From: Escherichia coli
Lineage (GTDB): Bacteria; Pseudomonadota; Gammaproteobacteria; Enterobacterales; Enterobacteriaceae
Length of the DNA: 64,000 nucleotides
NCBI RefSeq assembly: GCF_044324785.1
Contig: NZ_CP172127.1
Direction: 5' to 3' (one strand)
Made by a program: the position numbers and the translations under genes. Shown here in pieces: positions 30,558 through 31,162 of the stretch. Position 1 is the stretch's first letter. Every line of letters begins with the position of its first letter. The notes beneath the pieces are model-generated. The model worked only from the letters and a program-made list of their open reading frames with translations, did not search any database and was not told the DNA's origin.

Positions 30558-30716
30558 TCGCCAGCAAAAATAACTGGTTACCTTTAATCCGTTACGGATG
30601 AAAATTACGCAACCAGTTCATTTTTCTCAACGTAACACTTTACAGCGGCGCGTCATTTGATATGATGCGCCCCGCTTCCCGATGAGGGAGCAGGCCAGTA
30701 AAAAGCATTACCCCGT

Positions 30717-30801
30717 GGTGGGGTTCCCGAGCGGCCAAAGGGAGCAGACTGTAAATCTGCCGTCATCGACTTCGAAGGTTCGAATCCTTCCCCCACCACC
30801 A
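30717..30801 (+). tRNA. tyrT: tRNA-Tyr (anticodon GUA)
   Basis: GGTGGGGTTCCCGAGCGGCCAAAGGGAGCAGACTGTAAATCTGCCGTCATCGACTTCGAAGGTTCGAATCCTTCCCCCACCACCA: acceptor stem, long variable arm, anticodon loop ACTGTAAAT, encoded CCA; upstream is the recognised tyrT promoter and GC-rich discriminator. Confidence 0.95.
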
Positions 30802-30856
30802 TCACTTTCAAAAGTCCGTGAACTCTCAAACGAATCCGCGATTAAATATTCTGCCC

Positions 30857-30943
30857 ATGCGGGGAAGGATGGGAAGCTTCGACCAAGGTGCGACTCGAGC
30901 GCCAGCGAGAAAGCGTTGCCGCAGGCAACGACCCGAAGGGTGA
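30857..30943 (+). CDS. tpr: Protamine-like small basic protein Tpr (29 aa), inside the tyrT 3' repeat unit
   Basis: ATG 30857 to TGA 30941 gives [28 protein letters not shown]; matches the tpr ORF of the tyrT operon as recalled; whether it is translated is uncertain. Confidence 0.45.
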
Positions 30944-30960
30944 AGCGCGCAGCGCTGAGT

Positions 30961-30985
30961 AATCCTTCCCCCACCACCATCACTT
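30961..30985 (+). repeat. Direct repeat of the tRNA-Tyr 3' end (25 bp, period 178 bp)
   Basis: AATCCTTCCCCCACCACCATCACTT occurs at 30783..30807 and again at 30961..30985, exactly 178 bp apart. Confidence 0.8.
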
Positions 30986-31065
30986 CCTGTAAATACTCAA
31001 AACCAGTTACTCCGAGCTAATTCTGCCCAATGGCACCGCGTTTACCGGACCTACAATATCCATCC

Positions 31066-31098
31066 CTGTAGGTCGGATAAGCGAAGCGCATCCGACAA
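31066..31098. repeat. REP-like palindromic unit
   Basis: TGTAGGTCGGATAAGCGAAGCGCATCCGACAA with GTCGGAT/ATCCGAC arms, resembling REP consensus. Confidence 0.45.
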
Positions 31099-31117
31099 CT
31101 CACCCCGTACCGTGCCC

Positions 31118-31142
31118 ATAAAAAACCCCGCCGAAGCGGGGT
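31118..31142 (-). terminator. Rho-independent terminator after narI (end of narGHJI)
   Basis: On the minus strand: CCCCGCTTCGGCGGGG followed by TTTTTTA. Confidence 0.75.
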
Positions 31143-31162
31143 CTATGCAAACTAAAATTCGC

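Follow-up and report, generated by a model that had tools for sequence, protein, structure and literature searches.

We examined a 64,000-nt stretch of Escherichia coli DNA (contig NZ_CP172127.1 of assembly GCF_044324785.1, hereafter the window), and in particular the gap between purU and narI, which holds the tyrT operon. The region is an ordinary enterobacterial tyrT operon in which each component belongs to a described family: between the two flanking genes lie a promoter, one gene for tRNA-Tyr, one 178-nt repeat unit containing the RtT RNA, a REP-like palindrome and the convergent terminator of narGHJI (Table 1). It is the well-known tyrosine-tRNA operon of E. coli in its shortest form, with one 119-bp tRNA copy fewer than near-identical genomes possess. 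Writing T for a tRNA-Tyr gene and R for an RtT unit, the window is T-R, with 605 nt between purU and narI, and the equivalent T-T-R arrangement measures 724 nt. What removed the missing unit is a misalignment of two identical tRNA copies, which took place either in the cell or in an assembler.

A scan of the whole window with ARAGORN returned exactly one tRNA, a plus-strand tRNA-Tyr with anticodon GTA, and the Rfam tRNA model concurs (53.4 bits). This agrees with the original prediction, made from the letters of the sequence without database searches, which had placed a single tRNA-Tyr at 30717..30801. The molecule has the cloverleaf, GUA anticodon, long variable arm and encoded CCA of its family and matches the tyrT-locus copies of K-12 at every position (100% identity). 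A second tRNA-Tyr, which would have spoken against that prediction, was looked for and none occurs in the window, which therefore lacks the tandem tyrT-tyrV doublet. The 34-nt spacer that separates the two tRNA genes in T-T-R genomes, TCTCAAGCATTACCTCAAAATTTGAATTACCCCT, is likewise absent from all 64 kb with three mismatches allowed. The promoter scan gave 10 of 12 matches, with near-consensus hexamers and a GC-rich discriminator, over a stretch that is unchanged across five aligned E. coli loci; we take this to be the classical tyrT promoter, on the strength of its sequence and of established knowledge. The leader carries an A-to-G change at 30684, in a hairpin loop, which is present in all assemblies of the window's haplotype and in none of the 5,424 complete E. 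coli records, among which the best match reaches 98.6%. It is probably neutral, and makes a handy lineage marker.

Table 1. Features of the purU-narI interval and its flanks, in window coordinates.
Feature	Position	Strand	Basis or detail
purU, formyltetrahydrofolate deformylase (upstream flank)	29715..30557	+	280-aa open reading frame; purU annotation in syntenic E. coli records
tyrT promoter: -35 TTTACA, 16-nt spacer, TG-extended -10 TATGAT, then GC-rich discriminator GCGCCCCGC	30639..30666	+	promoter scan
Precursor-tRNA 5' leader, inferred	30674..30716	+	start deduced from the -10 position
tRNA-Tyr (GUA), 85 nt, CCA encoded	30717..30801	+	ARAGORN, Rfam tRNA
25-nt repeat, copy 1: last 19 nt of the tRNA + TCACTT	30783..30807	+	exact match
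178-nt repeat unit, one complete: spacer + RtT, with a copy of the tRNA 3' 19 nt and CCA at its end	30802..30979	+	
RtT RNA, RF00391	30848-30979	+	Rfam match, whole model
tpr-like open reading frame, cut short: 24 aa + TGA	30869..30943	+	translation
25-nt repeat, copy 2: RtT 3' end + TCACTT, the TCACTT being the start of a truncated next unit	30961..30985	+	
REP-like imperfect palindrome	~31039..31096		core GTAGGTCGGATAAGCGAAGCGCATCCGAC at 31068-31096
narGHJI operon intrinsic terminator, convergent: GACCCCGC-UUCG-GCGGGGUU, then U run	31120..31146	-	
narI (downstream flank)	31163..31840	-	225-aa open reading frame; narI annotation in syntenic records

The exact 25-nt direct repeat, whose copies are spaced 178 nt apart, is far beyond chance within 1.1 kb. 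It had been described as the last 25 bp of the tRNA recurring downstream; the recurrence is real, but the repeated segment comprises 19 nt of the tRNA and 6 nt of trailer. Nor is the repeat periodic here, as had been proposed. The unit starts after the CCA and ends in a tRNA-like 19-mer, as units of the 178-bp family do, and is followed by only the first 6 nt of the next, so that the window holds 1.14 units rather than two or more in tandem. The match to RtT scores 127.6 bits against a gathering score of 45 and covers model positions 1-130, and it has the expected position: downstream of tRNA-Tyr, on the same strand, and ending with the 3' 19 nt of the tRNA including CCA. In the minimum-free-energy fold, a 12-bp closing helix pairs 5' GGGGAAGGAU with 3' AUCCUUCCCC. 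Given that the unit shares the 19-nt end of the tRNA and pairs it with the 5' GGGGAAGGAU, it would present a tRNA-like terminus, which is consistent with the published processing of rtT RNA out of the tyrT transcript. According to the account of Bosl and Kersten (1991) given in PMC3318445, rtT RNA is released from the tyrT primary transcript by processing and rttR corresponds to one repeat unit; modulation of the stringent response by rtT is attributed to the same work there and in bioRxiv 10.1101/2024.07.17.603846. Processing of the tyrT-tyrV-tpr polycistron is RNase E-dependent (PMC3082872).

Folding of RtT across relatives was assessed unit by unit on anchored segments, which replaced RNAalifold on a MAFFT alignment of 99 units after the latter yielded poor structure. 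Of 68 distinct sequence variants, 65 fold the central hairpin, and they do so through many different compensating stems (GTTGCC/GGCAAC, CGCGC/GCGCG, GATGC/GCATC, GTCGC/GCGAC and GCCAT/ATGGC among them), so that compensatory changes mark RtT as a conserved structure. The units fall into two subtypes, an 'inter-tRNA' one ending in ...GGGTGAGGAGCGAAGCGACGAATAATCC and a 'distal' one ending in ...GGGCGAAGCGCGCAGCGCTGAGTAATCC. The 3' hairpin, which folds in 31 of 57 variants, is formed by the distal subtype only, to which the unit of the window belongs. RtT-like units also stand directly after the tRNA-Tyr of a Thr-Tyr-Gly-Thr tRNA operon (the tyrU context) in Cedecea, Acerihabitans, Dickeya, Budvicia, Intestinirhabdus, Sodalis and Yersinia aleksiciae; RtT units thus accompany tRNA-Tyr genes and are not tied to the purU-narI site.

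The same unit had been expected to encode the 29-aa arginine-rich Tpr. This did not hold, since codon 25 of the K-12 frame, CGA, is TGA in the window and the tpr-homologous open reading frame (ORF) ends there after 24 aa, with three amino-acid changes relative to K-12. Of 11 RtT units that are distinct within E. coli, 3 have the intact 29-aa ORF (the others have 5, 9, 22 or 24 aa, or have lost it), and 78 of the 127 distinct RtT units found in Enterobacterales species representatives contain no ATG-started ORF of at least 10 codons. Neither among units, nor among strains, nor among genera is tpr conserved. Judged from these comparisons of sequence, the conserved product of the repeat is a structured RNA and not a protein, 'Tpr' looks like an incidental ORF, and the version in the window is probably not a functional gene. 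The tpr 'gene' annotated in K-12 behaves as a non-conserved ORF lying inside a structured RNA.

The nearest relatives of the window show what its locus lacks. The draft GCA_044094765.1 is 100.000% identical to it over 20,711 nt, T-R included, on a contig of 241,441 bp, and the identical T-R allele recurs in the drafts GCA_044700905.1 (241,442 bp) and GCA_002546135.1, giving at least three T-R assemblies. With its RtT unit and leader single-nucleotide polymorphism (SNP) unchanged, this haplotype is T-T-R in two chromosome-scale assemblies, GCA_028598205.1 (5.52 Mb) and GCA_964055045.1 (4.90 Mb), and in the drafts GCA_020811775.1, GCA_044099105.1 and GCA_958315875.1; in GCA_044080555.1, a draft of the same clone, the contig breaks inside the tRNA. 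The T-T-R allele, which with its 34-nt spacer is found in many E. coli, is identical to the window in this lineage in its flanks, leader SNP and RtT unit, and its sole difference is one extra unit of exactly 119 bp (the tRNA and the 34-nt spacer), flanked by an 88-nt exact repeat. The original prediction had called the locus contracted or collapsed by comparison with K-12. One tRNA copy is indeed missing and both options are live, but K-12 is the wrong yardstick: as the full form of this lineage is T-T-R with one RtT, the window lacks only a tRNA, and its RtT complement is whole. Among drafts the lineage is common (exact NarJ occurs in 545 public assembly blocks and exact PurU in 625) and is missing from the RefSeq complete-genome set, where none of 5,426 E. 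coli genomes exceeds 98.1% identity over narI-narG (31000-37000).

One of the T-T-R drafts, GCA_044099105.1, has a C19T change in the D-loop of its first tRNA-Tyr copy, which may be a real variant or an assembly error, and GCA_020811775.1, on a contig of the same length, has two exact copies. The idea that drafts resolve two copies only where a distinguishing SNP such as C19T is present was rejected, since GCA_020811775.1 resolves identical copies.

The architecture of the locus varies widely among complete genomes. K-12 is T-R-T-R-R-R, with four Rfam RtT matches, one of them between the two tRNAs; the original prediction had given K-12 two tandem tRNA-Tyr genes and about three repeat units. 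NY1601 and N3 are T-T-R with a 34-nt spacer, WCHEC035148 is T-T-R-R and WP2-W18-CRE-03 is T-R. When the locus length was read with a flank-only query in 60 systematically sampled complete E. coli genomes, 11 were T-T-R, 11 had two RtT units, 12 had three, 11 were of the K-12 type, 4 had five RtT units and 3 were T-R with an adjacent IS4; in the remaining 8 the purU and narI flanks were not adjacent. One of the genomes with two RtT units, an O157:H7 strain, is T-R-R and has a T-R-T-R-R sister strain; this pair (F7508 and Z866) is one 294-bp tRNA + RtT unit apart, another copy difference within a clone. Complete E. coli overall have one or two tRNAs and 0-5 RtT units at the locus. A single tRNA-Tyr at the tyrT site is found in roughly 12-20% of sampled complete genomes and the plain T-R form in about 2%, figures that come from systematic samples of 40-60 rows, as the T-R form has no unique junction by which an exact census of the 5,426 complete genomes could be taken, and that include hybrid 'complete' assemblies, some of which could themselves be collapsed.

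Plain T-R was found in WP2-W18-CRE-03, GPEC1352 and C325. These alleles belong to separate haplotypes, and each has a two-tRNA allele as its nearest neighbour, from which we conclude that loss is recurrent. T-R with IS4 was seen in four separate records, including FDAARGOS_1297; the element is inserted between RtT and narI, an arrangement present in about 5% of sampled complete genomes (e.g. Eco_23-2678). The class in which the flanks are separated comprises 734 of 5,423 complete E. coli genomes. In all four such genomes inspected, the first genes of a lipid-type island come straight after a single tRNA-Tyr, and AR_0081 (NZ_CP027534.1), which was read through to narI, has an island of seven genes and 7 kb without RtT. 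This cluster, which lies between the single tRNA-Tyr and narI in about 13.5% of complete E. coli genomes (coordinates 262-7372 in AR_0081), encodes a fatty-acid desaturase, a sterol desaturase, a PAP2 phosphatase, an F390-synthetase-like protein, an MBL hydrolase, an epimerase and a KAS III-like protein.

A search with the tRNA alone gave 15,731 chromosomal copies for 5,425 genomes, an average of 2.90 each. Eight genomes with two copies were inspected: two were plain T-R (GPEC1352 and C325), one was T-R with IS4, four belonged to the island class and one was a K-12 derivative with both copies at the locus. The number of tRNA-Tyr BLAST places per genome is thus only partly valid as a proxy for a singleton. 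The K-12 derivative in question, PG20180054 (evolved in the mouse gut), has two tRNA-Tyr places genome-wide and both are at tyrT, so its missing copy is tyrU or lies in the tyrU region.

Taken together, these data lead us to the following model. A strong promoter of the stringently controlled type would drive a precursor that contains tRNA-Tyr(GUA) and continues with one 178-nt unit, and the rtT/RtT RNA, as it ends in a copy of the tRNA 3' end, may be releasable by tRNA-processing enzymes. The tRNA genes and repeat units form a tandem array whose copy number shifts through misalignment of identical copies. The full form in this lineage is a tRNA, the 34-nt spacer, a second tRNA and RtT, and the form in the window would be what remained once the 119-bp unit between two 88-nt exact repeat copies was lost, either by RecA-mediated unequal crossing-over or by replication slippage. 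One tRNA-Tyr gene would then be left at the tyrT site, and two genome-wide if tyrU is intact. We lean slightly towards this reading and consider there to be an even chance that the window records such an event in the cell, namely a genuine and very recent deletion by unequal recombination that is segregating in a near-clonal lineage.

Set against this is the possibility that the isolate is truly T-T-R and that the identical 88-nt copies were fused during short-read assembly, with loss of the 34-nt spacer, in which case the single tRNA is not biological. We regard this as a serious contender, though we would not put it quite at an even chance. Several observations favour it and weigh against a deletion in the cell. 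Both chromosome-scale contigs of the identical haplotype have two tRNAs, and no SNP separates its T-R from its T-T-R assemblies, so a T-R subclade has no phylogenetic backing. T-R is on record only in fragmented assemblies. A spurious ORF that differs between the two states, and of which an ATG-start 90-aa version marks T-R, identified 13 T-T-R contigs, two of them longer than 1 Mb, and 3 T-R contigs, all fragmented; a plus-strand 112-aa ORF and a GTG-start 91-aa ORF, both specific to T-R, matched nothing on record. The 88-nt exact repeat, with its period of 119, is close to common short-read lengths of about 100 nt, so a collapse is technically plausible, and the drafts of the clone differ from one another by just one unit: the 241,441-bp draft contig matches the window at 100%, and sister drafts of 241,557-241,559 bp carry T-T-R or are sized for it. 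In other species many draft contigs stop at RtT or tRNA-Tyr units, which shows the array to be hard to assemble. Finally, LDR, the window's only other tandem array, is likewise reduced to one copy, against two in N3 and three in K-12; drafts of T-T-R size likewise have one.

Other observations fit a collapse less well and argue for a real deletion. The array is demonstrably unstable in nature and varies among complete E. coli genomes. At least three assemblies, from two kinds of accession series, have the one-copy form without a single base of difference. Some contigs do break in the array; the break inside the tRNA of GCA_044080555.1 shows an assembler failing openly and not by a silent join. 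Several drafts resolve two identical copies, and in many SPAdes-named draft contigs of other species tRNA pairs about 120 bp apart are resolved. If T-R stands at roughly 20% of drafts, two long assemblies that both happen to be T-T-R are not improbable under a real polymorphism. There is also a precedent in kind. In the su+III (supF) system, unequal crossing-over is reported to turn the tRNA-Tyr doublet of this same locus into a singlet, one of the two tandem identical genes being lost through misaligned copies (Russell et al. 1970). That segregation was reportedly seen on phi80 transducing phages and in K-12 with copies 294 bp apart, whereas the period in the window is 119 bp and the event there is one that we infer.

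The copy difference might also be read in the opposite direction, with T-R as the primitive state of the haplotype and its two-tRNA relatives as recent duplications. T-R does occur in several Enterobacterales representatives, for example Yersinia pestis and Acerihabitans, and species representatives as a whole display every combination of T and R. Two tRNAs are nevertheless present in all Escherichia-lineage representatives (among them E. albertii and two other lineages) and in Salmonella, which makes the singleton the derived state; for Escherichia, two tRNAs thus look like the ancestral condition. The haplotype's close relatives within E. coli all have two tRNAs as well, and the sister assemblies share their inter-tRNA spacer, letter for letter, with distant E. 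coli strains, a match that a new duplication would not reproduce. An ancestral single copy is therefore very improbable. We give still less credence to an imported allele, that is, to T-R having arrived by homologous recombination with a divergent tyrT-narGHJI segment from an unsampled one-tRNA E. coli lineage. A sharp breakpoint against N3 at 30598, with one SNP in the 6.6 kb to its left (23990-30597) and about 2% divergence to its right, would suit an import, as would the want of any complete E. coli genome above 98.1% over the narI-narG segment. This explanation is effectively refuted by the sister assemblies, in which the same haplotype, including the private leader SNP, is T-T-R; the copy difference must have arisen after, and independently of, any import. 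Compared with complete E. coli genomes, the window thus has a mosaic makeup next to tyrT. Two related ideas about the divergent segment were rejected. It is not bounded by the tyrT and LDR arrays, as its left breakpoint lies upstream of the promoter (29482-30598) and divergence decays gradually after about 38.5 kb, and it does not stem from another Escherichia species, as other species are 82-94% identical.

A more ambitious proposal is that the tRNA-Tyr/RtT array acts as a fast, selectable dosage switch (tRNA-Tyr 1-3, RtT 0-5) that changes even inside one clone. We think this improbable. If it were true, lineages would be tuned for tRNA-Tyr supply or rtT level and the window would have caught a switch in progress. 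Candidate selective pressures would include tRNA-Tyr-targeting defence systems and phage-borne tRNA-Tyr (PMC11555353), or the demands of the stringent response.

The closest described system remains the tyrT-tyrV-rtT(rttR)-tpr operon of K-12, with which the window shares its purU-narI position, promoter, 85-nt tRNA-Tyr, 178-nt unit with a tRNA-like 3' end, REP element and nar terminator. The two differ in array length, T-R-T-R-R-R in K-12 against T-R here, and in the second K-12 unit, which has the intact 29-aa tpr ORF where the window has 24 aa. The window thus departs from the described families only in the tyrT-tyrV doublet, in having fewer than two tandem 178-bp units and in tpr. In K-12, tyrT and tyrV share the tyrT promoter and there are three tRNA-Tyr genes in all (PMC2887954). 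The claim that tRNA-Tyr dosage would be halved at this site is arithmetically correct, although genome-wide the change would be from three genes to two if tyrU is present (PMC2887954), and many natural strains already stand at two tRNA-Tyr genes.

The operon, the rtT RNA, the 178-bp repeats and the loss that turns a doublet into a singlet are textbook-era knowledge, and there is nothing new in kind here. The loss is ordinary whether it is a common recombination event or an assembly shortcut, and carries little biological weight. It does have a practical side, in that tRNA gene counts and codon-adaptation indices derived from drafts can be off by one at the tyrT locus. The 34-nt spacer, or k-mers joining ...CCACCATCTCAAGC or ...GAATTACCCCTGGTGGGG, would serve as a simple diagnostic of T-T-R at the level of reads.

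The LDR array (ldr/rdl type I toxin-antitoxin) lies between chaA and kdsA at 46960-47420 and has one unit in the window, with an Ldr ORF at 47221-47331. It resembles the tyrT array in that its copy number varies among strains (one in the window and in AR_0081, two in N3), and is unlike it in encoding a type I toxin-antitoxin, in its unit of about 535 bp and in its unrelated sequence. Genome-wide there are 1 to 12 Ldr places per genome, a count that is not specific to this locus. N3 and GCA_964055045.1 carry IS4 between adhE and tdk (about 23934 in window coordinates), a position at which the window is free of the element.

The two remaining features of the interval lie between the repeat and narI. 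The palindrome resembles the REP consensus and folds with z = -2.47. It is intergenic and imperfect, as REP elements of about 30-35 nt are, and is kept in the aligned strains; its 41-nt core is found at a median of 9 places per E. coli genome, all of them unannotated and intergenic. These properties bear out the REP element that had been placed after the repeat. The nar terminator was not listed by the consensus scan at 31120-31146, but its minus-strand fold has a free energy of -17.2 kcal/mol (z = -3.63, with 0 of 200 shuffles as stable), and the hairpin lies 17 nt past the narI stop and is followed by UUUUUU, as is typical of an intrinsic terminator.

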